Position numbers and translations under genes: made by a program
NCBI GenBank assembly: GCA_946409645.1
Contig: CAMJXE010000004.1
Coordinates: forward strand, 11,420-75,419
Length of the DNA stretch: 64,000 nucleotides
Source of the DNA: an uncultured Bacteroidales bacterium
GTDB taxonomy: Bacteria; Bacteroidota; Bacteroidia; Bacteroidales; WCHB1-69
Reading direction: 5' to 3'
Part shown: piece by piece, positions 10,965 through 43,281 of the stretch
Position numbering within the stretch: position 1 is the stretch's first letter
Layout of the letters: the number at the start of each line of letters is the position of its first letter
Notes under the pieces: generated by a model
Databases searched by the model: none
Told to the model about the DNA's origin: nothing
Seen by the model: the letters and a program-made list of their open reading frames with translations, nothing else

Positions 10965-11867
10965 TTATGCCATCAAGGCAGCCAATGCAATAGAATACAT
11001 TTTCGTTTTGGCACTGTCACCACGAGAAGAGAGCACGCATGGCACTTTTGCACCCTTCAGCAGTGCGCCCAGTTCGGCGTGACTGAACTTCGTACAGCAT
11101 TTGTAGAATACGTTGCCCGTCTCGATGTTCGGGAAGAGCAGACAGTCGGCGTCGCCGGCCACTTCGCTCTTGAACTTCTTGATTTCCACCGTCTCCTTGT
11201 CGATAGCGAGGTCCAAAGAGATAGGACCCTCGACGGAGACATTGCCCAATTGACCGCGGTTGCCCATGGCAGCGAGGAGCGCAGCGTCAACGCAAGCCTG
11301 CATACCCACGGACATCTGCTCGGTAGCAGCCAGGCAGGCCACTTTCGGTTTTTCAATACCGAGAGCATTAGCCGTTTCGACCAAATATTTGAGAATAGCT
11401 TGTTTCTCCTTAAACTCAGGAGCGGGGATCACGGCCACATCGCCCACGATGAGTAATTTATGGTAGGCCGGGTTCTCAATCACAGTCACATGCGACAAAG
11501 TGGCCTTCGGAGGGCAGAGACCCTTCTCCTTGTTCAGGATAGCGCGCATATATTTGTCGGTAGGCAGCAGACCTTTCATCAGAATCTGGCCCTCGCCGGC
11601 GTTGATGAGTTCGCAGCTCTTTGTGGCAGCCTTCGTATCCACATATTCGGGCACGATGGTGAACTTCGACATATCAAAGCCATGCTCTTTGCACACTTTC
11701 TCGATTTCCTCGGGGTTGCCGACGAGAGTGGCATCGATCACGCCTAATTCCACAGCGGCATATACAGCCTCGATGGTGTGCGCATCGTTGGCATTGGCAG
11801 CCACCAATCTTTTTCTCGGTTTTGATTTTACTAATTCTACTAATTGGTCTAATTTCGTGATAGCCAT
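10965..11867 (-). CDS. Phosphate acyltransferase (phosphate butyryltransferase-like, PTA/PTB family)
   Basis: ILMKGLLPT, EGPISLDLAI, PNIETGNVFYK and SSRGDS motifs. Confidence 0.9.
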   Translation of the reverse strand: MAITKLDQLVELVKSKPRKRLVAANANDAHTIEAVYAAVELGVIDATLVGNPEEIEKVCKEHGFDMSKFTIVPEYVDTKAATKSCELINAGEGQILMKGLLPTDKYMRAILNKEKGLCPPKATLSHVTVIENPAYHKLLIVGDVAVIPAPEFKEKQAILKYLVETANALGIEKPKVACLAATEQMSVGMQACVDAALLAAMGNRGQLGNVSVEGPISLDLAIDKETVEIKKFKSEVAGDADCLLFPNIETGNVFYKCCTKFSHAELGALLKGAKVPCVLSSRGDSAKTKMYSIALAALMA

Positions 11868-24957: not shown

Positions 24958-25252
24958 AGTTGAAGTGGATCCATCTGCAAGGGCTGATATTGAAGTACTT
25001 ACATCCTGGCTACAAGCGAGAATGACACTTGAAGGTGCAGAAAAGTATTTGGATGCCATGTTTAACGAAATATTATCGCTCTCTGTTTTCGCCGGTTTTT
25101 ACAAACCGAGCCAATACGCTGACATTCGTCGCTATCACCCAAAAGCATGTCGCATGGTGTCCCATAACAAAAAGTGGGTTTATATATTTCATATTGAAGA
25201 GGAAACGGTTGTTGTAAATCGTTTAAGACCAGCACGGTTAATAACAAAATAG
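24944..25252 (+). CDS. ParE/RelE-family toxin
   Basis: YKVEVDPSARADIE...L...I.SL..F; WVYIFHIEEETVVVNRL; 102 aa. Confidence 0.8.
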   Translation: MRTYKVEVDPSARADIEVLTSWLQARMTLEGAEKYLDAMFNEILSLSVFAGFYKPSQYADIRRYHPKACRMVSHNKKWVYIFHIEEETVVVNRLRPARLITK

Positions 25253-25255
25253 TGT

Positions 25256-25360
25256 GAACGATTAGGGCTGTTGGAGGTTATTTATGACTACAATAATGTT
25301 GTTCGGATACGATTGTCTTTGATTAAAACATTTATTCCAAAGCCGAAGAAAGATGGGTGA
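25256..25360 (+). pseudogene. 3' remnant of a paralog of the 23946 gene (contains direct repeat copy 2)
   Basis: Reads ERLGLLEVIYDYNNVVRIRLSLIKTFIPKPKKDG* versus ERLGLVEAIYDYNNEVRIRLSLINVL*. Confidence 0.75.
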
Positions 25361-25401
25361 TGGTGGAAAGCGACTTCGGCGGGATATAAAACGCACCCCA
25401 G

Positions 25402-25452
25402 CTTCAATAACCAATAACCTATAACCTATAACCATTAAAATTGTATCTTTGC
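25402..25452 (+). repeat. 51-bp direct repeat with ATAACC(T/C) heptamers and -7 promoter box, copy 1
   Basis: 49/51 identical to 27415-27465; ends in TATCTTTGC. Confidence 0.92.
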
Positions 25453-25475
25453 ACTCTCTAAAAATCGGTCGGAAT

Positions 25476-27023
25476 ATGAAAATACTACCCATAGGAATAC
25501 AGACTTTTGAGAAAATACGTTCAAACGAATATGCGTACGTGGACAAAACAGTCCTCCTTACCCAGTTGGCTAAAGGGGGATATTACTTCCTGTCGCGTCC
25601 TCGCAGGTTCGGCAAAAGCCTCTTGCTCTCCACGCTGAAAGCCTACTTCCAAGGCAAGCGGGAGCTGTTCGAAGGTTTGGCCATCGCCGAATTAGAGAAA
25701 GATTGGAAGAGCTACCCCGTATTGTATTTAGACTTGAACACTGGGAATTACAACTCCGCAGGGGCTTTGGAGGAGCGCCTTGGCTATATTCTTTCCGAAT
25801 GGGAGGAGGAATTTGCCATTGTTCCGGAAAAGACTCAGTCTGTGGCCACAAGATTTCAGGTGGTGATTAAGCATGCGACGAAAACCACGGGACAACAGGT
25901 GGTCATCTTGGTGGACGAGTACGACAAGCCACTGCTGCAAGCCATTGACAACGAACCGCTGCTGACGGAGTTCCGCAACATCCTCAAGGGTTTCTATTCC
26001 AACCTCAAGACCTGCGACGAACACATCCGCTTCGCCTTCCTCACCGGTGTGACCAAGTTCTCGCACGTCAGCATCTTCAGCGACCTGAACAACCTGCAGG
26101 ACATCTCGCTCAACAATGCATACGCGGACATTTGCGGCTTCACCGAGGAGGAAATCCGGCAGACTTTCGCCCCTTATATACAGAAATTCGCGAAACAGGA
26201 GCAGGTGGATGAGGATGCGATAATGGGAAAGTTGAAGGCCAGGTACGACGGCTACCACTTCTCGCCGGATATGTCAAAAGATGTCTATAACCCATTCAGT
26301 GTGCTGAATGCGCTGAGCAGCTGCCAGTTGCAAAACTACTGGTTCTCCACCGGCACCCCGACGTTCTTGGTCAAATTGCTGAAAGACGGGCAGTATAAGA
26401 TTCAGGATCTTTCGGAAGGGGACATTACAGCCACCGACCTTTCCGGTAAGGACTCCCTTTTCACCGAGCCTGTGGCGTTGTTGTATCAGACGGGTTATCT
26501 GACGATTAAGGGCTTCGACAAGGATTTTGACAGCTACAGTCTCGGATTCCCCAACAAAGAGGTGGAGTTGAGTTTCCTGCGTTTCCTGCTGCCGAAATAT
26601 GTGGGCGGCACGGAAAACCGGTCGAGTTTCTACATCGAGCATTTCGTGCGCGACCTGCGGAAGGGCGATATCGACAGTTTTATGGAGCGGATGACGGCCT
26701 TCCTCGGCGACACCCCCTACGAGATGATCCGCGACTGCGAGAACCACTTCCAGAACGTGCTGTTCACCGTCTGCCGGCTGATGGGTTACCACACCATTGC
26801 CGAATACCGCACCTCACGCGGGCGCATCGACATGGTGGTGAAGACCGACAACTACACCTACGTCTTCGAGTTCAAATTCGACAAATCGGCGCAAGAGGCA
26901 CTGCAACAGATTGACACCAAAGAGTATATGATTCCTTTCACCGCCGACGGCCGCCAAATCGTCAAGATCGGGGTGAACTTCTCGAAAGAGACAAGGAACA
27001 TCGAGGGCTGGGAAGTGCGGTAA
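25476..27023 (+). CDS. AAA-ATPase-like protein with C-terminal PD-(D/E)XK nuclease domain
   Basis: LPIGIQTFEKIR, SRPRRFGKSL, LVDEYDKP, GRIDMVV...VFEFK...ALQQI..K.Y. Confidence 0.93.
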   Translation: MKILPIGIQTFEKIRSNEYAYVDKTVLLTQLAKGGYYFLSRPRRFGKSLLLSTLKAYFQGKRELFEGLAIAELEKDWKSYPVLYLDLNTGNYNSAGALEERLGYILSEWEEEFAIVPEKTQSVATRFQVVIKHATKTTGQQVVILVDEYDKPLLQAIDNEPLLTEFRNILKGFYSNLKTCDEHIRFAFLTGVTKFSHVSIFSDLNNLQDISLNNAYADICGFTEEEIRQTFAPYIQKFAKQEQVDEDAIMGKLKARYDGYHFSPDMSKDVYNPFSVLNALSSCQLQNYWFSTGTPTFLVKLLKDGQYKIQDLSEGDITATDLSGKDSLFTEPVALLYQTGYLTIKGFDKDFDSYSLGFPNKEVELSFLRFLLPKYVGGTENRSSFYIEHFVRDLRKGDIDSFMERMTAFLGDTPYEMIRDCENHFQNVLFTVCRLMGYHTIAEYRTSRGRIDMVVKTDNYTYVFEFKFDKSAQEALQQIDTKEYMIPFTADGRQIVKIGVNFSKETRNIEGWEVR

Positions 27024-31581: not shown

Positions 31582-31711
31582 ATCTGTATAAAAATGGGCG
31601 CAGATTCATTTGTCTTTATGCGTAAAATCAGCTGACGAACCTCTTCATACAAACCGCCAAAATCATTATCGTCAACATTATTTATTCATTAACCCCTCTG
31701 CAATAAAAACA

Positions 31712-32053
31712 ATGACCGAAACGAAAATATACGTAGGGATGAACGATGCCGCAAGCAAGCAGCAAGAATATAACACGGAAATGTATATCAAAGTCATGAA
31801 GTACGTGTGCCAAAGTCACCGTGTCTCATTCTCGTTTGTCATCACAGAAGGCGGATTTTTCCACGAAAATGGCGACTATACACAGGAACAGACCCTCGTC
31901 CTGTCACTGATTGATGCTAAGAAGCATGTAGCAGAAGACATTGCGAGAGATCTCTGCGCCTTTTTCCATCAGGAAAGTGTTATGATAACGGAAAGTATGG
32001 TCAGGGCATATTTTGTCCAGGAAAATCTTAAGCCAAATAACAAACAACAGTGA
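31712..32053 (+). CDS. DUF3574-like small protein
   Basis: KIYVGMND...EGGFFHENG...I...L...FHQESVMI. Confidence 0.6.
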   Translation: MTETKIYVGMNDAASKQQEYNTEMYIKVMKYVCQSHRVSFSFVITEGGFFHENGDYTQEQTLVLSLIDAKKHVAEDIARDLCAFFHQESVMITESMVRAYFVQENLKPNNKQQ

Positions 32054-32390: not shown

Positions 32391-33752
32391 ATGGTACATG
32401 ATTTATACATTTTGATGATTACGGCTGGTGTGGTCAGTCTTTTGTTTAAATTATTGAAACAGCCAGTAGTGCTGGGTTATATCGTTGCCGGTGTTTTGGT
32501 AGGCCCATATCTATTCGGCGAAACCTTTGTGAATGCAGAGAATGTAGAGGCATGGGGTAATATCGGTGTGCTGTTCGTGTTGTTCTGCATCGGTTTGGAG
32601 TTCCGTCTCAAGAACCTCATCAGCAGTGGCAAAGTGGCGGCAATAGGCGCACTTACCATCATCCTGGGCATGATGGTCTTGGGCTTCGGCGTGGGACAGT
32701 ATGCCGAATTGGACATGATCAACTCCCTCTTTCTGGCAGGTATGCTCTGCATGTCAAGTACGACTATCGTAATGAAGGCAATCGATGAAGCAGGCCTGAC
32801 CAAGGAGCGTTTTGTCAAGGGTGCGACGAGCATTCTTATCGTGGAGGATGTGGTAGCGGTAGTACTGATGGTATTGCTCTCCAGCATAGCTATCAAGCAT
32901 CAGTTTGAAGGTGCCGAACTGCTTAGAAAAGTGGGCGTTTTGGCAATCACACTCGCTGGATGGTTCATCTGCGGAATACTGATTATCCCGACACTACTGC
33001 GCAAAGTCAGACCCTATCTGAATGACGAGACACTTATCATCCTCGCCTTGGGTCTGTGCTTAGGCATGGTGCTGACGGCAGAGGAAGCAGGGTTTAGCAG
33101 TGCACTCGGCGCTTTTGTTATGGGTTCTATCCTTGCCGAGACGGTGGAGTCGCATCGTATCGAAAAGCTGATGACACCGCTGAAGAATGTCTTTGCCGCT
33201 ATTTTCTTCGTCTCTGTGGGCATGCTGATCAACCCGACCTCGTTGGCGGAATATTGGTCAAGTATCCTGTTAGTATGCGTGGTGATTATCATCGGCATGA
33301 TTCTCTTTGGCACTTTGGGCTGCTGGTGGGGTGGCGAAACGATGCGCGACGCAATGTTAACCAGCTTCTCGTTCGTGCAAATAGGCGAGTTTTCGTTCAT
33401 CATCGCTTCTTTGGGCACCAGCTTAGGCGTTCTTCACCCAGCTATCTATCCTATCATCGTGGCATCCAGTGTGGTCACCACCTTCCTCACCCCCTATATC
33501 ATGAAAGCAACTGTGCCATGCTATAATTTCTTCTACAACCACGCATCAGCGAAATTGCGCGCCAAAATCGACCAACGTGAACAGCTGGTGGCAGAAGCAG
33601 AGACAGTTACCCAATCCGAAGAGTCACATGCTTTGGCAGACAAGGCACGCCATGCCGTCCGGAACACCTTCCTCACAAAGCGTCTCGTCGAATTGTTTAT
33701 CAAGAATATGAGCGCTAAAGACGAAAACAAATCTGAAACAAACGATAACTAA
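32391..33752 (+). CDS. Cation:proton antiporter (CPA2 family)
   Basis: KQPVVLGYIVAG, FCIGLEF, MSSTTIV, IVEDV, FFVSVGM, QIGEFSFII. Confidence 0.92.
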   Translation: MVHDLYILMITAGVVSLLFKLLKQPVVLGYIVAGVLVGPYLFGETFVNAENVEAWGNIGVLFVLFCIGLEFRLKNLISSGKVAAIGALTIILGMMVLGFGVGQYAELDMINSLFLAGMLCMSSTTIVMKAIDEAGLTKERFVKGATSILIVEDVVAVVLMVLLSSIAIKHQFEGAELLRKVGVLAITLAGWFICGILIIPTLLRKVRPYLNDETLIILALGLCLGMVLTAEEAGFSSALGAFVMGSILAETVESHRIEKLMTPLKNVFAAIFFVSVGMLINPTSLAEYWSSILLVCVVIIIGMILFGTLGCWWGGETMRDAMLTSFSFVQIGEFSFIIASLGTSLGVLHPAIYPIIVASSVVTTFLTPYIMKATVPCYNFFYNHASAKLRAKIDQREQLVAEAETVTQSEESHALADKARHAVRNTFLTKRLVELFIKNMSAKDENKSETNDN

Positions 33753-33804: not shown

Positions 33805-36800
33805 GTGAGCAAAAAAAGTCTGCTCTGGAAAATACCATGCATCCTTTTAGGTGTCATCATGGGAATGGTACTGTTACTGTTGATTACCGTAACGGTTATT
33901 CTGGTGTCGCCCAAAGCCCGCACGGCTGTCCTGCAGAAATGCGTGACAGAAATCAATGAGCTGACCGACCTGGATGTGGATCTGGGACGACTCTACCTTT
34001 CCCCTTTCCATCATTCTCCAATGATTCTCTATCGCGCCTACAAGGGCGTGGAAGAATTGCCAATACACATTGAAATAGATAGTCTCTATATAGGTCATCG
34101 CGGTCAGGACACGCTGATTTATGTGCATGGTTTGCGTTTGCAAGGTTGTATGAAGAAACCGGGGACTGGGGTGCCGAAAGACGATTTTCTGGCCCGTACT
34201 ATCGTGGTTGACCAACTGCTGTTGGACCAAACAACGCTCCATTCCGACACTTTGATAGAAGCGGTAGGCATCGACGCTATCGTTAAACATCTGCATGTAA
34301 AGAGTCCGGGGCTCAACATCGCCAAAGGAGACTACCCGCTGCACGGCTTGAAGCTTGCAGATGCGTTTGTGGGCATTGCGCTGCGCGACACCGAGAGCGA
34401 CACCGATGACACCACCTCTACCCCAATGGCCTTTGAAATACCCGATGGCGAGTTGAGCAATGTGCGCTTCGTGCTCAATCCGAGAGGGCTGGATTTACGT
34501 GCCGGCTCTTTAACCACAAACGTGTTGGCGGATGTAGGAGGCGACCTCTACGATGTACGCCGCCTGAATATCGGGAATGCTTCGCTCACACTCGGAACAC
34601 TGCACCTGCCTTTTGATACCATCTATGGAGATGCGTTGGTGGATCTGAACACCGATCTGATTAACTCAAACCAATTACATGTCCGTTCCGACTCGTTTGG
34701 GGCTAAAGCGGATCTAATGGCCACTACACTGAATATGGAGACGATGCGGGTGGATCTGGTAGGCAATGCCGATTATCAAGGCAATAGGGCTACTTTGAGT
34801 GGATTCTATGATATCGATGATGAGATATATGATTTGCTGGTGAATGTTGAGCAAGTGAACCTGAGCCCGTTCCTCAAAGACAGTACCCACGTGGAATTGG
34901 CAGGCGAAATACATGCTCAGGGCAAAGGAATTGACCCTCATTCTCCCGCGATGAAATGCAAAGTGGCTATGAACCTGCCCCATTGCGTCTATAATCAAAT
35001 CAATGTTTCTGGTCTCATTCTTGATGCCGAACTGGCTGACAAAACAGTGGCCGGAAATCTGCATTTGCCGGTTAACATGACGGATCGTGACCTGAAACTG
35101 ACGGCAGAGACGAAACATCGGTTCCGTATATCAGACTTTTTTTCAGTCGATCGGATAAACGTGGACTACCATTCGCAGATGAAAAATGTGATAGCAAAAG
35201 TGGCGGGCGAAAACTATGACATCGACTATCTGGATCTTGACTTCACTACAGATAGCACCACATCGTTGAATCTGGCTACTCAGGGACTCTCCATCGAAGC
35301 ACAAAGCCCGATGCATCTGCTCCGGTTGGTGGACGTTGTTCAACCATTGCTGGGACTTGTCTCCGACACAACGTTCATCAAATCCATCACCTCGCTGCAG
35401 GATTTGACGATGCTGGACACCCTCCATCGACTTATACCGGACTTAAAGGCGGATATAGTGTTGGAGCAAGGCAGTCCTATCCAGGCCATTATCGAACGGA
35501 ATGGATTGAACATAAACGAGTTGAACATGTCGCTAACGTCTGATTCCCTCCTGTCGGAACTGATATTGGATGCTTCCATCCCATACATTGACCATTCGGA
35601 CAACGACAGTGCGGGGTTGCACTTACCTGCTGCGGCCGCGGCAATGAAGGTAAGCATGACGGAAGGCAAGACCACTGTCTCGCTCAACGCCAACACCAGC
35701 ATCACCGATGGTGTGATGAATGTGAACGGGCTCTGCACTGATGCTGCGTTGCAACTCTATTTGGAACGAAACGGACGCGATCTGAACGGGACGGGACATC
35801 TTGCCCTGGACAGTCTTTTTTACGACGAAATGGACCTTGGAAACCGGACGGCCGACATTTGGATTGCGCCATCGAAACTGTATGAGAATGCCATCCGGGC
35901 AGATTTGCGGTTGGACGATATCCCGCTTGAGCTGGTGAATAACATCCTTAATATGGAAGACATCGATTTGGATGGCATCGTTCAAGCTAAGGCTAGCGCA
36001 GACGGTTTGCCTGCACAAGTGGACCTCTCTGCCGAAGTGCGACCGTTGGATGTGACGGCTCTCTACAAACCTTACGATGTGAGGTTTAATCTGGGGGAAA
36101 CGCCTATCATGATGGAACATAACAATGTGAAGCTCAAAGATGTACACATCTATAGCGCCGATGGCTCCTATCTGTCGCTGAACGGCGGCTTGGATCTCAA
36201 CACCATGCTCCTGGATGTAGATCTGGCTGCCGACAATTTCGCCCCGGTGAAACTGGAACAGAATGGTGCTTTCCCTGTCTATGGCGACTTGGCAACCGAT
36301 GTCCGCGGAAAAGTGAGTGGACCGCTGGACAGTATCCATGCCGACGTAGATGTCACGATTCTGCCCACTACAGATCTCACCTATCCGATTGATGAGAAGA
36401 ATTTGGCACAATTCAAACCGTACGGTACAGTCAACCTACAATACAACACCACTGGAGGGGCGCTTAAATATGGCGGTACAATTCATGTGGACGAAGGATT
36501 GGTTCGTTTTTCGCCCAAGCTATATCCCATGATACCCTTCCATGTGGATTCGGGAAGCACTGTCACCCTCAACGGTCCATTAGGCCAAACTATACTGAAC
36601 CTCTCTGCTTCGCAACAGGTGAAAGCAGACGTGCAATCGGCGGGCGAAGAAACACGCCGTGTGACTTTCAACACGGGCGTGCGCGTAAAGGGCATACTCG
36701 ATTCGGTAGGACTTACCGCCATCGGTTTCTTCCTCGAAGCGCCTGATGACGAAATCATCACGCGCGAACTCGCCTCCATGGATGAGGATACTCGCGAAGG

Positions 36801-38610
36801 TATTGCAGCGGCATTGTTGGCTACCGGAATGTATATGGGCGAAAGCAATGAGGCAGCACATAAGGATGGATATGCCTTGTCCAGCATCATTAACAGCCGT
36901 ATCAATGCGGCTATGGCTAATTCCAAGGTGGGAAAGGTAATCGATATTGATGTCAGTAGCGGACAAACCGTGCATGCGTCTGGCAAAACCAATGACATGA
37001 ATATCGCCATCAGCAAAACCCTGTTTGACGATAGGCTGCGCATCACGGTCGGCTCTACCATCTCTGACAATCCAGAGGTCAATAAAGCCAATGGATTGCT
37101 CAGTCGTATTTCCGCAGACTATAAACTGACGAAATCAGGGAATGCATTTCTCCGGATGTTCTCCCAGCGCGATTATGACAACATCTTTGAAGGTGAACTC
37201 ACTAAATCTGGTATAGGTTCGGGAGTTACCAAGCAATGGAAACGCAACCAATTCTTACAATCTTTGGGCGATTCTATCACACGTACATACAGCTTCACGG
37301 CGGATGCGGATGTGGCCTATCGTTCCAACAACAGTATCGGCCCTAACATCACTCTATCCCATTCGATGAAGAACCTCTTGGGACGTGGGGAGACATTCTT
37401 GGTCAAAGGCTATGGAGCATACTATTGGTCGCTACGCGAACGACATCCTGAGGATCCGAAAACATCCAACACCTACAAATTCGGTATCGATGCCGCGCTC
37501 ATCTTTCCGTATCTGCACTGGGTGGGAAACAACAATCCCGATGGCGATACCCGCTACCGAATCGGATACAAATATGAGAACATAGCAGGTGGATACGGTG
37601 TTCACAAGTTTTCCGGAGCCTTCTCGTATTTCATCCGTTCGTCTCGTTATATCACGCATGTCTTCACCCCCGCCTCGCTCTCTGTGGTTAGAGTGAAGGC
37701 CGAATCGCCGGAACTGATTAATGAAGCCGTCAATCGTCCGGAACTCCTAAAACTGCTTTACGGAAACGAGTTTATTCCCTCCATCGGCTATGGAATCACC
37801 TATAGTGATTACCGCACCAAACGGCGGGTCAACACCATGATTGACTTTGAAATCAAAGAAGCGGGTAACCTGACTAACGCCATCTATTGCATCTTTGGAC
37901 ACAAATGGTCTGAGCATGACAAACCGATTGGCAAAATCCCATATAACCAGTTCGTCAGGTTGACGGCCGAGCTGTGGAATAAGTTCAACCTGACAGATCG
38001 GATATGCATCGCAACGCGTCTTTTCGCAGGTGCTAATATTCCGTTGGGGAACTCCTTCGAATCTGCTCCCCTTTCAGAAGCCTTTTATGCCGGTGGCCCT
38101 AACAGTTTACGCGCGTCCGAGCCCTACGCCTACGGACCAGGAAATTTCCATAGCACCAAATATAACCAGAACTTTTTCCATGCCGGTGATGTAAAACTCG
38201 AAGCCAACATCGAGTTACGCTTCCCTCTCGTTTGGAAACTCTATGGCGCCGTTTTCCTCGATGCCGGCAACGTATGGAACTGGTATAACGTCTCCGACAT
38301 CCTTAGCAGCGAAGAATATGCGTTGTTCGTCGAAAGAATGGGAATAACTGAAGAACTGCAAAATGGAATTATCGGGAATCCCAATATCGCGAAACAGATA
38401 GCTTTAGGTACAGGCGCAGGAATCCGCCTCGACATCGACGGACTCGTTATTCGCTTGGACTTAGGTGTCGGCATCCACGCACCTTACCAGACCTACAAAT
38501 ACACCAAGGAAGGCACTCAAGATCTCACACGGCCAATCAACACCTATTACAACATGCCTTCTGTACTGGATGGCCTGCGCTTCAACTTCAGCATAGGATA
38601 TCCGTTCTGA
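33805..38610 (+). CDS. TamB/AsmA-like protein fused to a C-terminal Omp85 (TamA/BamA-type) beta-barrel
   Basis: N-terminal TM anchor; beta-rich body; TamB-type end LFDDRLRITVG...ADYKLT...FEGELTKSG; then KNLLGRGE, FYAGGPNSLR, GDVKLEANIELRF, FLDAGNVW, GTGAGIRLD, SIGYPF. Confidence 0.85.
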   Translation: MSKKSLLWKIPCILLGVIMGMVLLLLITVTVILVSPKARTAVLQKCVTEINELTDLDVDLGRLYLSPFHHSPMILYRAYKGVEELPIHIEIDSLYIGHRGQDTLIYVHGLRLQGCMKKPGTGVPKDDFLARTIVVDQLLLDQTTLHSDTLIEAVGIDAIVKHLHVKSPGLNIAKGDYPLHGLKLADAFVGIALRDTESDTDDTTSTPMAFEIPDGELSNVRFVLNPRGLDLRAGSLTTNVLADVGGDLYDVRRLNIGNASLTLGTLHLPFDTIYGDALVDLNTDLINSNQLHVRSDSFGAKADLMATTLNMETMRVDLVGNADYQGNRATLSGFYDIDDEIYDLLVNVEQVNLSPFLKDSTHVELAGEIHAQGKGIDPHSPAMKCKVAMNLPHCVYNQINVSGLILDAELADKTVAGNLHLPVNMTDRDLKLTAETKHRFRISDFFSVDRINVDYHSQMKNVIAKVAGENYDIDYLDLDFTTDSTTSLNLATQGLSIEAQSPMHLLRLVDVVQPLLGLVSDTTFIKSITSLQDLTMLDTLHRLIPDLKADIVLEQGSPIQAIIERNGLNINELNMSLTSDSLLSELILDASIPYIDHSDNDSAGLHLPAAAAAMKVSMTEGKTTVSLNANTSITDGVMNVNGLCTDAALQLYLERNGRDLNGTGHLALDSLFYDEMDLGNRTADIWIAPSKLYENAIRADLRLDDIPLELVNNILNMEDIDLDGIVQAKASADGLPAQVDLSAEVRPLDVTALYKPYDVRFNLGETPIMMEHNNVKLKDVHIYSADGSYLSLNGGLDLNTMLLDVDLAADNFAPVKLEQNGAFPVYGDLATDVRGKVSGPLDSIHADVDVTILPTTDLTYPIDEKNLAQFKPYGTVNLQYNTTGGALKYGGTIHVDEGLVRFSPKLYPMIPFHVDSGSTVTLNGPLGQTILNLSASQQVKADVQSAGEETRRVTFNTGVRVKGILDSVGLTAIGFFLEAPDDEIITRELASMDEDTREGIAAALLATGMYMGESNEAAHKDGYALSSIINSRINAAMANSKVGKVIDIDVSSGQTVHASGKTNDMNIAISKTLFDDRLRITVGSTISDNPEVNKANGLLSRISADYKLTKSGNAFLRMFSQRDYDNIFEGELTKSGIGSGVTKQWKRNQFLQSLGDSITRTYSFTADADVAYRSNNSIGPNITLSHSMKNLLGRGETFLVKGYGAYYWSLRERHPEDPKTSNTYKFGIDAALIFPYLHWVGNNNPDGDTRYRIGYKYENIAGGYGVHKFSGAFSYFIRSSRYITHVFTPASLSVVRVKAESPELINEAVNRPELLKLLYGNEFIPSIGYGITYSDYRTKRRVNTMIDFEIKEAGNLTNAIYCIFGHKWSEHDKPIGKIPYNQFVRLTAELWNKFNLTDRICIATRLFAGANIPLGNSFESAPLSEAFYAGGPNSLRASEPYAYGPGNFHSTKYNQNFFHAGDVKLEANIELRFPLVWKLYGAVFLDAGNVWNWYNVSDILSSEEYALFVERMGITEELQNGIIGNPNIAKQIALGTGAGIRLDIDGLVIRLDLGVGIHAPYQTYKYTKEGTQDLTRPINTYYNMPSVLDGLRFNFSIGYPF

Positions 38611-41529: not shown

Positions 41530-43281
41530 TTATTGAATTATCAGTTTTTTCGTGATAAATTGTCTATTATGTTGGAAATGAAGCAAATACATTCCCTTTT
41601 TAAGATGATTCGTGTTGATGTTCTGATTTCCAGGGGTGGCCATGCCGCTCATCACCATCTTTCCGTCAGCAGTAAGCATTGTCCAAGCAAATTCCTCTTC
41701 TGTCGGATTGTCTATCGTGAAATAACCTTGCGTAACCGGATTCGGAGTTAGGTTAATTTTCGTTAATTCGTTCTCGGGAACATCACCTCCAATAATGACA
41801 TGTACCACGTAAGTGCGGGTAGATTGATGGGGTGTAGCAGCTGTATAGAGCACATTATAATTAATATAATCACCCAAAAAGTCCTGAGCTTCAGCCTCGT
41901 CAGGTGTGACAGTCACATACAAAGGTTTGGTAATGGTCGGATAAATATGCCTCAAATCAGGAATCACGCATCCCACATAAAAGAATATAGAATCATCATC
42001 CGTGATTTCGCCAAACATGTCCCCATAGGTAGAAAGTGCCTCTGGATTGTTTTCCATAAGAAAGTCAAAACCCATAATTTCGGGCTCTATCACATATATT
42101 GGCTGGAAACTGACTAATCCGTACGACGGGTTATCCACTTGATGGAAAATCACCGCCTCGGCAGCCGCTTCATTGTCGCAACCCCAATAGTTGCCCACGG
42201 CATTCATATTGCTGTTGGCATTGTTATACAACTCGTAATCAACTCCGCCATTTCCGTTGTTATACAACACGTTATAGCCAGGATCCTCCGTCGTGCCCAT
42301 ATCCACATGATGATAATAAATCGCCGTAACACCCCAAAGGTTACCCGTGATGAGATTATGGCGCAGCTTAGCAGCACACGTCGTGTCATAACCATAAATA
42401 CTGATTCCACTGCCGCCATTGTTTGGCGCAACCTCTAAATCATTGTCAACAAATTGGTTATTGGTGATTATAGAGGAAATACGGTAGCCATTTTGCGTGT
42501 AACCGTAGCGGTTGTGTGTAATGACATTGCCTTTTACGACGACATTTGTGACACCCGTATTATACAGGTTCATAATAGCAATTCCGCCCGACATGTTGCT
42601 GGCCACACCCTCAATGCGGTTGTCAATAATGCGAATCGTGTCTGTTGTGCCTGGACCGATATTGATTTGCGGGGTGTTGGCATTATCTAATACATTGTTA
42701 TAGAATACATTATTGATAATTGTTGGACAGCCGTCGGTATTCACGGCAGACTGGATCGCACATGCTTGATTGTCGTGAAAATAGCTGTTTTCAATCACGG
42801 GATGACAGTTCATATAACTAATCACGTGATTGGAAAAATGGTCAAACTCACAGGAAGAAATCCTTACCGCGCTATTTATCAACATAATACGTTGACAGTA
42901 TTGAACGTGTATATTAGACAAGAAACAGGAATCAGCATCTTCGAAGCGCAGTTCGAAAAAATTACTTTGCGTGTAATCTCCTTGGATGAGCAGCGGTTGC
43001 GTGCGTTCTTGTGTCAACAATGCACCGGAAATGGTAATAGTCACACCATTATCCACCAAAACAGCAACATCGTCGGCCTCAAGAAGCAGGGTGTCATTAG
43101 CCTCAAGAGTCACATTTTGTGTAATTCTAAAAAGGTGAGGTGAAATGATCTGAACAGAATTTGGCATGATTCCCGCAAGCGATGTTAACGTGTACTGCCC
43201 CCCAAGCGTAACATTGGTTGGATTTGCAATCACTTGATTTCCAAATACTAATGCCATCAATACGTAGAAAATTTTTTTCAT
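41530..43281 (-). CDS. T9SS-secreted protein with right-handed parallel beta-helix
   Basis: Signal peptide; Asn-rich I.NN repeats; PNPV...LKKGMYLL...KKLIIQ CTD. Confidence 0.85.
   Translation of the reverse strand: MKKIFYVLMALVFGNQVIANPTNVTLGGQYTLTSLAGIMPNSVQIISPHLFRITQNVTLEANDTLLLEADDVAVLVDNGVTITISGALLTQERTQPLLIQGDYTQSNFFELRFEDADSCFLSNIHVQYCQRIMLINSAVRISSCEFDHFSNHVISYMNCHPVIENSYFHDNQACAIQSAVNTDGCPTIINNVFYNNVLDNANTPQINIGPGTTDTIRIIDNRIEGVASNMSGGIAIMNLYNTGVTNVVVKGNVITHNRYGYTQNGYRISSIITNNQFVDNDLEVAPNNGGSGISIYGYDTTCAAKLRHNLITGNLWGVTAIYYHHVDMGTTEDPGYNVLYNNGNGGVDYELYNNANSNMNAVGNYWGCDNEAAAEAVIFHQVDNPSYGLVSFQPIYVIEPEIMGFDFLMENNPEALSTYGDMFGEITDDDSIFFYVGCVIPDLRHIYPTITKPLYVTVTPDEAEAQDFLGDYINYNVLYTAATPHQSTRTYVVHVIIGGDVPENELTKINLTPNPVTQGYFTIDNPTEEEFAWTMLTADGKMVMSGMATPGNQNINTNHLKKGMYLLHFQHNRQFITKKLIIQ

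Follow-up and report, generated by a model that had tools for sequence, protein, structure and literature searches.

An apparently undescribed single-chain TamB2-TamL2 fusion in rumen and gut Bacteroidales

Described TamB–Omp85 systems and the fused gene

The TamB2-TamL2 pair of Bacteroidota is the closest known system to the protein that we describe here, a 1601-residue polypeptide in which a TamB-like arm runs directly into an Omp85 barrel; the best mechanistic model for it is Escherichia coli’s translocation and assembly module (TAM), formed by TamA and TamB. In Flavobacterium johnsoniae, tamB2 and tamL2 (Fjoh_1899/Fjoh_1900) stand in the same order as the two halves of this polypeptide, the stop codon of the first overlaps the start codon of the second, and both are dispensable (Giovannercole et al. 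2025, PMC12045153). For the E. coli proteins, cryo-electron microscopy (cryo-EM) has shown that TamB’s C-terminal domain consists of two helices plus six strands, that the last TamB strand pairs with strand β1 of TamA at the open lateral gate, and that the earlier TamB strands lie in the lumen (PMC12800296). Complexes in which TamA β1 and the TamB strand βS are locked by a disulfide still complement (PMC13119328), and work from 2026 proposes this “hybrid barrel” of the last TamB strand and TamA β1 as the working state (PMC12800296, PMC13119328). The fused gene lies at 33805..38610 (+) of a stretch of 64,000 nucleotides, referred to below as the window, from an uncultured Bacteroidales bacterium of rumen/gut (lineage WCHB1-69; assembly GCA_946409645.1, contig CAMJXE010000004.1, forward-strand positions 11,420 to 75,419); gene coordinates below are those of the window unless another locus is named.

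Set against these systems, the fusion most resembles the TamB2-TamL2 pair. In both, the TamB-like part precedes the Omp85 part; homology extends throughout the arm, the barrels share 32-36% identity, and both are accessory. The fusion differs in being one polypeptide, in lacking the basic tail of TamB2 and, from TamL, the signal peptide, the lipidated cysteine and all three POTRA domains, and in its shorter arm. It shares with E. coli TamA-TamB the signal anchor for the inner membrane, the beta-rich make-up of the arm, the helices and six strands of the C-terminal domain and an Omp85 barrel of 16 strands, although sequence similarity is very low; POTRA docking and noncovalent pairing hold the E. 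coli complex together, whereas the link is covalent in the fusion, and E. coli TamA needs POTRA2, whereas the fusion has no POTRA domain at all. The canonical TamL and TamB of Bacteroidota, which F. johnsoniae cannot do without, are members of the same superfamilies, and the TamB Pfam domain scores over its cut-off in canonical TamB and in the fusion alike. However, they are encoded by separate genes at separate loci, their TamL carries POTRA domains, and the identity between the fusion and the canonical proteins of its own genome falls to 24-27% in the barrel and 21% in the TamB domain (BLASTP aligns fusion residues 907-1126 with residues 1258-1485 of the genome’s canonical TamB).

The gene starts with GTG, ends with TAA and forms one open frame of 1601 codons without an internal stop; the start site is kept among homologues, with the consensus MxKKxLIWKIPC. 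The first 35 amino acids (aa; 33805..33909, +) comprise a basic stretch and a hydrophobic segment of about 25 residues (aa ~9-35) with KK ahead of it, the sole segment above 1.6 in a Kyte-Doolittle scan. After it comes Pro36, which is conserved in the TamB N-terminal motif, and hhalign aligns the N terminus of the fusion with that of TamB2 (LLYiPPVQ). A lipobox was looked for in the fusion protein and none was found; aa ~9-35 is thus, as predicted from its sequence, a signal anchor. The arm that follows (aa 36-864; 33910..36396, +) has no Pfam match and shows homology to TamB2 from end to end (hhalign). Next comes the TamB (DUF490) C-terminal domain (aa 865-1121; 36397..37167, +), which matches positions 141-368 of the 381 in Pfam profile PF04357 at 51.2 bits, the cut-off being 22.4. 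The barrel, of the TamL2 type and with 16 long predicted strands, occupies aa 1156-1601 (37270..38607, +). Its second half (aa 1381-1601) matches Omp85 (PF01103) at 54.2 bits against a cut-off of 24, and aa 1154-1601 match positions 328-747 of the 747 in the NCBIfam model lipo_TamL (NF052279), that is, the barrel half only, with a score of 321.6 that stays under the family cut-off of 400. Within the barrel we find the loop-6 lid motif FYAGGPNSLR (aa 1427-1436; 38083..38112, +), the partner of this motif, FLDAGNVW, in a later strand (aa 1484-1491, +) and a C-terminal β-signal strand ending in GYPF (38575..38607, +). In an alignment of 15 diverse fusions, G1430, G1431, R1436, F1484, A1487, G1488, N1489 and W1491 are invariant, as are N1594, F1595, G1598, Y1599, P1600 and F1601 at the C terminus.

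An initial annotation of the window had proposed this architecture, an anchor, a TamB arm with its C-terminal domain and an Omp85 barrel in a single uninterrupted frame without POTRA domains, and it holds in each of these respects. The motifs that it quoted (RLRITVG, SADYKLT, DNIFEGELTKSG, FYAGGPNSLR, GDVKLEANIELRF, FLDAGNVW and the terminal GYPF) are all present in the translation, Pfam, NCBIfam, hydropathy and hhalign agree on the order of the parts, PF04357 and PF01103 both score over their cut-offs on the one chain, and no POTRA match appears in the fusion protein with Pfam even at E≤1.

As to family membership, the protein shows two features by which TamB proteins are recognized (Heinz et al. 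2015), a predicted N-terminal signal anchor and a PF04357 match over the curated threshold. It has no free C-terminal strand to dock in a separate Omp85 protein, since the corresponding segment (aa 1132-1151) lies within the chain and runs on into the barrel. Of TamL it has the TamA/TamL-type 16-strand barrel, nested among TamL proteins encoded directly after tamB, and it lacks the lipoprotein signal peptide with its lipidated cysteine, the three POTRA domains and a score at the curated level. Of the Omp85 superfamily it has the 16-strand barrel, the loop-6 lid motif and a C-terminal aromatic β-signal, with GGPNSLR, FLDAGNVW and GYPF invariant or nearly so, but not the POTRA domains. Because three TamL features and the free C-terminal strand of TamB are missing, the protein should be filed as a fused derivative that is a member of neither the TamB nor the TamL family. 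It also resembles the POTRA-less “noNterm” class of Omp85 proteins (Heinz & Lithgow 2014), but here the N-terminal extension is a TamB arm.

Spread of the fusion and its origin from tamB2-tamL2 pairs

The fusion recurs widely. Among 5.8 billion proteins searched, more than 650 relatives from many sources were found; among the 120 matches listed, almost all are ~1600 aa long and 71-97% identical. They carry generic Bacteroidales names such as “TamB domain-containing protein” and “BamA/TamA family outer membrane protein.” When cluster representatives were searched exhaustively with HMMER, using aa 850-1601 as the query, about 16 clusters at 50% identity proved to be full-length fusions (1507-1620 aa, down to 37% identity), followed in the same search by separate TamL-like (~770-860 aa) and separate TamB-like (~1450-1690 aa) proteins. 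At the joint itself, contigs from the independent DNA metagenome runs X3 and X5 span 36900-37600 with 0 differences and 0 gaps. Most of the gene is also covered, at ≥99% identity, by metatranscriptome contigs from sheep gut, which span the joint at 37019-37345 and 37130-37341 with 0 differences. Because these contigs cross the junction, the gene appears to be transcribed as one unit, with the proviso that metatranscriptomes can contain DNA. In one species of the same genus (G144), the fusion gene lies in two overlapping frames of 1009 and 615 aa (G144:C64:24657-25079 and 25073-26899), which suggests a frameshift or a sequencing error in that genome.

A literature search, including term searches within TamL, Omp85 and TAM papers, found no description of a TamB–Omp85 fusion. 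Taken together, the fusion is real and conserved and apparently undescribed in the literature; the initial annotation’s suggestion that the architecture might be undescribed holds for published papers, but not for the databases, since in rumen and gut metagenome collections the protein is common under its generic names. A second suggestion, that the protein could form a self-contained trans-envelope conduit, needs a refinement, in that the fusion is not the sole TAM of its cell: the genome also encodes BamA (contig C15), a canonical TamL with POTRA and Omp85 domains (C36, 789 aa) and a canonical TamB (C22, 1522 aa). The fusion is also patchily distributed over the 151 genomes sampled from the family, being present in about 19 of 50 congeneric species and in a few species of three other genera, and the species without it show canonical TamL only. 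Because separate TamB, TamL and BamA genes are present and the distribution is patchy in both genus and family, we conclude that the fusion is an accessory paralogue of the TamB2/TamL2 type. In this genome it takes the place of the split tamB2-tamL2 pair. Other Omp85 proteins in the genome are a PlpD-like patatin-Omp85 protein of 776 aa (C120; L013:1127-3457, −) and two short Omp85 frames of 505 and 483 aa (C73 and C5).

We then compared fused and unfused loci in a scan of one genome per species, which yielded 80 loci. In 22 of these (L015-L036) both halves lie in a single frame, and in 56 they form two adjacent genes on the same strand. The fused loci come from metagenome-assembled genomes (MAGs) of rumen and gut Bacteroidales, many of them labelled Paludibacteraceae, along with Candidatus Cryptobacteroides, Candidatus Cacconaster and one Bacteroidaceae MAG. 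At the split loci (L037-L094), a TamB-like gene of 1500-1680 aa is directly followed by a TamL-like gene of 770-930 aa; such pairs occur in Bacteroides ovatus, Alloprevotella tannerae, Butyricimonas synergistica, Parabacteroides segnis, Prevotella, Muribaculaceae, Alistipes and others. Two split records are labelled Clostridium sp. CAG:217 (L062) and [Ruminococcus] lactaris (L086) and yet carry Bacteroidales-type tamB and tamL genes, the former standing beside a Bacteroidaceae contig in the tree; going by these sequences, both contigs are probably mis-binned or mislabelled.

The difference between the two kinds of locus is larger than a missing stop codon. The fusion retains the TamB2 end motif RLFxxxDYxNIxEGELxKxGxGV and, some 25 residues further on, the TamL2 barrel-start motif YRSNxxxGP. 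In split TamL2 proteins the barrel starts only at residue 365-530, and the sequence lost between the motifs comprises the basic tail of TamB2 (15-85 aa) and, from TamL2, some 385 aa with the signal peptide, the lipidated cysteine and the three POTRA domains; in terms of DNA, ~1.2 kb of TamL N-terminal coding sequence is gone. The linker of about 15 aa that had been placed between the two parts shrinks to almost nothing, in that TamB2 homology ends at about aa 1151 and TamL2 homology resumes at about aa 1156, which leaves the two ancestries about 4 residues apart and no room for a POTRA domain. Upstream of the joint, the fused and split TamB2 profiles align with a probability of 100% (hhalign; fused aa 1-1159 to TamB2 2-1557). 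Within this alignment the fused arm is ~450 aa shorter, the difference being spread over at least 13 blocks with the largest losses near fused aa 264-324, 626-694 and 861. The loss of the POTRA domains is accompanied by a shorter bridge rather than a longer one.

Maximum-likelihood trees of the barrel part and of the TamB part were built separately, the fused set consisting of the 22 fetched loci and the two copies of the window’s own genome. In each tree all fused proteins form one clade (Shimodaira-Hasegawa-like approximate likelihood ratio test, 100), and the fused/split state changes once, a value that none of 500 label shuffles matched (0/500 as low). The barrel tree places the fused clade inside the diversity of the split pairs, as sister to two Prevotellaceae MAG pairs. 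Since the fused proteins form one clade in both trees, the simplest reading of these sequences is that the fusion arose once, by a single deletion in an ancestor of a rumen/gut Bacteroidales clade, from an adjacent tamB→tamL pair. This origin, together with the precise loss of the TamL signal peptide, lipobox and POTRA region, fits the earlier suggestion that a covalent link stands in for POTRA docking.

The joint and its possible mechanism

To look at the joint, we modelled aa 700-1601 with AlphaFold2 from an alignment of 34 sequences; this run replaced a single-sequence prediction of aa 850-1601 with a predicted local distance difference test score (pLDDT) of 30. The new model has a mean pLDDT of 80 and a predicted template modelling score of 0.60. 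Assigned with DSSP, it consists of a beta-rich arm, helices at 983-1039, six strands at 1047-1151, a turn at 1152-1155, an 18-residue strand at 1156-1173 and fifteen long strands up to aa 1598. The modelled part of the arm (aa 700-980) is all beta, with pLDDT mostly 72-93. The C-terminal part models as an Omp85 barrel of 16 strands, in line with the initial annotation, and a Foldseek search against the Protein Data Bank (PDB) gives TamA and BamA as its best matches, barrel-only TamA entries reaching template modelling scores of 0.67-0.71 (8us4, 0.71; 4n74, 0.67) at 13-15% identity. A phmmer search with the TamB C-terminal part against PDB sequences returned no solved TamB chain, only chance matches to armadillo repeats. 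Because of this, the equivalence of the strands (aa 1047-1151; 36943..37257, +) with those of E. coli TamB was judged by the count of two helices plus six strands and by the ends of the Pfam profile. On this count the last TamB strand of the model, aa 1132-1151, is the counterpart of TamB β6, the β-signal-like strand.

From the model, the joint (37198..37323, +) is predicted to be a long β-hairpin: strand aa 1132-1151, the 4-residue turn aa 1152-1155 and strand aa 1156-1173, which leads into barrel β1 (pLDDT 68-87). The predicted joint is thus a hairpin formed by the last TamB strand and barrel β1, not a flexible linker, and strands that belong to separate chains in E. coli, where they pair, would here be consecutive in one chain with 4 residues between them. 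Variation among the fused proteins agrees with this picture. The spacing from G1136 to R1173 ranges from 28 to 38 residues, with every indel at the predicted turn, while G1130, K1134 and G1136 on one strand and R1173, S1174 and N1175 on the other are invariant at the base; as judged from the alignment, this is the pattern of a hairpin whose base is fixed and whose tip is free. In outer membrane proteins generally, the last strand ends at the periplasmic face and β1 begins there. Given this topology, a hairpin at this position is geometrically natural once the POTRA domains are gone.

We consider it likely that the protein is a natural single-chain TAM with an accessory role, in which an anchored arm ends in a tethered hybrid barrel and POTRA docking is not needed. 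In this mechanism, the N-terminal signal anchor would stay in the inner membrane, and the TamB arm of ~1100 residues would cross the periplasm and carry lipid. The β-barrel assembly machinery (BAM) would put the 16-strand barrel into the outer membrane by way of the invariant GYPF β-signal. The pairing of TamB β6 with barrel β1 would be a covalent hairpin; because it is covalent, the hybrid state would be permanent and POTRA docking would be unnecessary. Lipid would then be delivered to the outer membrane at the seam of the barrel, and the module would work beside the canonical TamB, TamL and BamA. On this reading, the fusion is probably a lipid conduit. Templating of other barrel proteins by it seems unlikely, because the β1 edge would already be occupied.

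Delivery at the seam is also suggested by LptD, here as an analogy only, in which a lipid-carrying domain with a β-sheet groove lies directly N-terminal to barrel strand 1. LptD belongs to another superfamily, has a 26-strand barrel, carries lipopolysaccharide and does not itself reach the inner membrane; its structures appeared in the Foldseek search as weak long alignments at ranks 43 and 46.

Several points weigh against the single-chain TAM. The hairpin is deduced from predicted secondary structure and a 4-residue turn. The arm is ~450 residues shorter than that of split TamB2, and its spanning of the periplasm is a prediction. Deletion of POTRA2 from E. coli TamA is lethal in the assay strain (PMC12800296), and the loss of POTRA domains is for this reason not trivially tolerated. 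Finally, in F. johnsoniae, depletion of canonical TamL brought no clear change in lipid composition (PMC12045153).

It is tempting to go one step further and to speculate that the barrel is a “stapled hybrid barrel,” in which a permanent covalent hairpin sits at the lateral seam, the barrel never closes on itself or templates another, and neither POTRA domains nor a lipid anchor are needed. We offer this as a tentative idea, with somewhat less than an even chance of being right. If true, evolution would already have run the locking experiment, and the hybrid barrel would be the working state of TAM-type machines; the core job of TAM would be lipid delivery and not the insertion of barrel proteins, and the main role of its POTRA domains would be merely to hold TamB in place.

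Alternatively, the protein could be an assembly or secretion factor for particular outer membrane or surface proteins, its barrel acting as an insertase and its arm as a chaperone track or an energy-coupling strut. This would suit the invariance of the functional Omp85 motifs (the loop-6 GGPNS(L/I)R and the (F)xDAGNVW strand) and the first description of TAM, as an assembly module for autotransporters, and the F. johnsoniae study reports that TamL depletion shifted the levels of outer membrane lipoproteins more than those of lipids (PMC12045153). However, the fusion wholly lacks POTRA domains, by which BamA and TamA handle their substrates; the strand before β1 is joined to it by a 4-residue turn in the model, so that the templating edge would be occupied; and no substrate gene recurs as a conserved neighbor of the locus, where the only recurrent gene encodes a Na+/H+ exchanger. 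We regard such a role as unlikely.

Less probable again is that the protein chiefly couples the two membranes as a structural tether or sensor, so as to control the spacing of the envelope or vesiculation, without any transport. Bacteroidota do have other single polypeptides that span both membranes: the Dma anti-sigma factors, described in 2024, are anchored in the inner membrane, place their C-terminal part in the outer membrane and control vesiculation (PMC10927553), although their domains and their signalling function are unrelated and we detected no homology to the fusion. The hypervesiculation reported upon TamL depletion in F. johnsoniae (PMC12045153) and the accessory, patchy nature of the fusion gene would also be in keeping with a tether. 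What speaks against it is that the whole TamB arm has been kept and is conserved together with its C-terminal domain, with no simpler spacer in its place, and that the catalytic motifs of Omp85, for which a passive anchor would have no use, do not vary. The last reading, that two genes were merged by an assembly or sequencing error or that the frame is a decaying pseudogene, found no support, even given a draft genome of 3.09 Mb in 147 contigs with 4.75% estimated contamination and the two-frame gene of G144, and is already refuted by the more than 650 relatives from many studies, the full-length fusions down to 37% identity, the absent TamL N-terminal coding sequence and the independent DNA and RNA contigs that cross the joint unchanged.

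Genomic setting and significance

The genome of the window carries a second copy of the fusion, on contig C27 (L010:4060-8898, +), which encodes 1612 aa and is 78% identical to the first. In the window, the gene beside the fusion is that of a Na+/H+ exchanger (32391..33752, +; Pfam Na_H_Exchanger), and the second copy is also preceded by such a gene (L010:2640-3983), 91% identical to that of the window. With blastn, the only segment that C27 shares with the window’s contig (C4) is 6.3 kb long, at 81% nucleotide identity, and comprises the exchanger and fusion genes. We considered whether the C27 copy might come from a co-binned relative and rejected this, since the rest of C27 has no counterpart in C4 and two fusion copies are likewise present in a further species of the genus (G101); from these comparisons, we read the two copies as probable paralogues. 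The exchanger gene adjoins the fusion in nine of the 22 fetched fused loci (L016, L017, L021-L025, L027 and L036; 74-78% identical by tblastn), upstream in some and directly downstream in others, always on the same strand. As a functional partner it was rejected, because among the fetched loci it accompanies only these nine, all from the close clade, besides the genome’s own second copy, and stands on either side of the gene; the arrangement probably reflects synteny and not a part of the machine. Elsewhere in the window, 41530-43281 (−) encodes a protein of 583 aa whose C-terminal sorting domain (Por_Secre_tail) belongs to type IX secretion, in keeping with a Bacteroidota genome, and 31610-32053 (+) is a 147-aa open reading frame with a weak match to the S-adenosylmethionine lyase family (21 bits, under the cut-off of 28).

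The route by which phospholipids reach the outer membrane is debated, and so is the question of whether TAM is a lipid conduit or a protein insertase. Against this background, a conserved and transcribed natural protein appears to fix the strand pairing covalently and to dispense with POTRA domains, and it offers a ready-made, minimal single-chain TAM for structural and complementation work. It also poses a question of biogenesis, namely, how BAM folds a barrel that is tethered at its N terminus to the inner membrane through ~1100 residues. For Bacteroidota, it would join the Dma anti-sigma factors as the second case of a polypeptide that spans both membranes, its location being deduced from the predicted architecture, and it provides a tractable variant of the poorly understood TamB2/TamL2 paralogues of this phylum. 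The fusion could thereby help to show how the TamB/TamL machine works.

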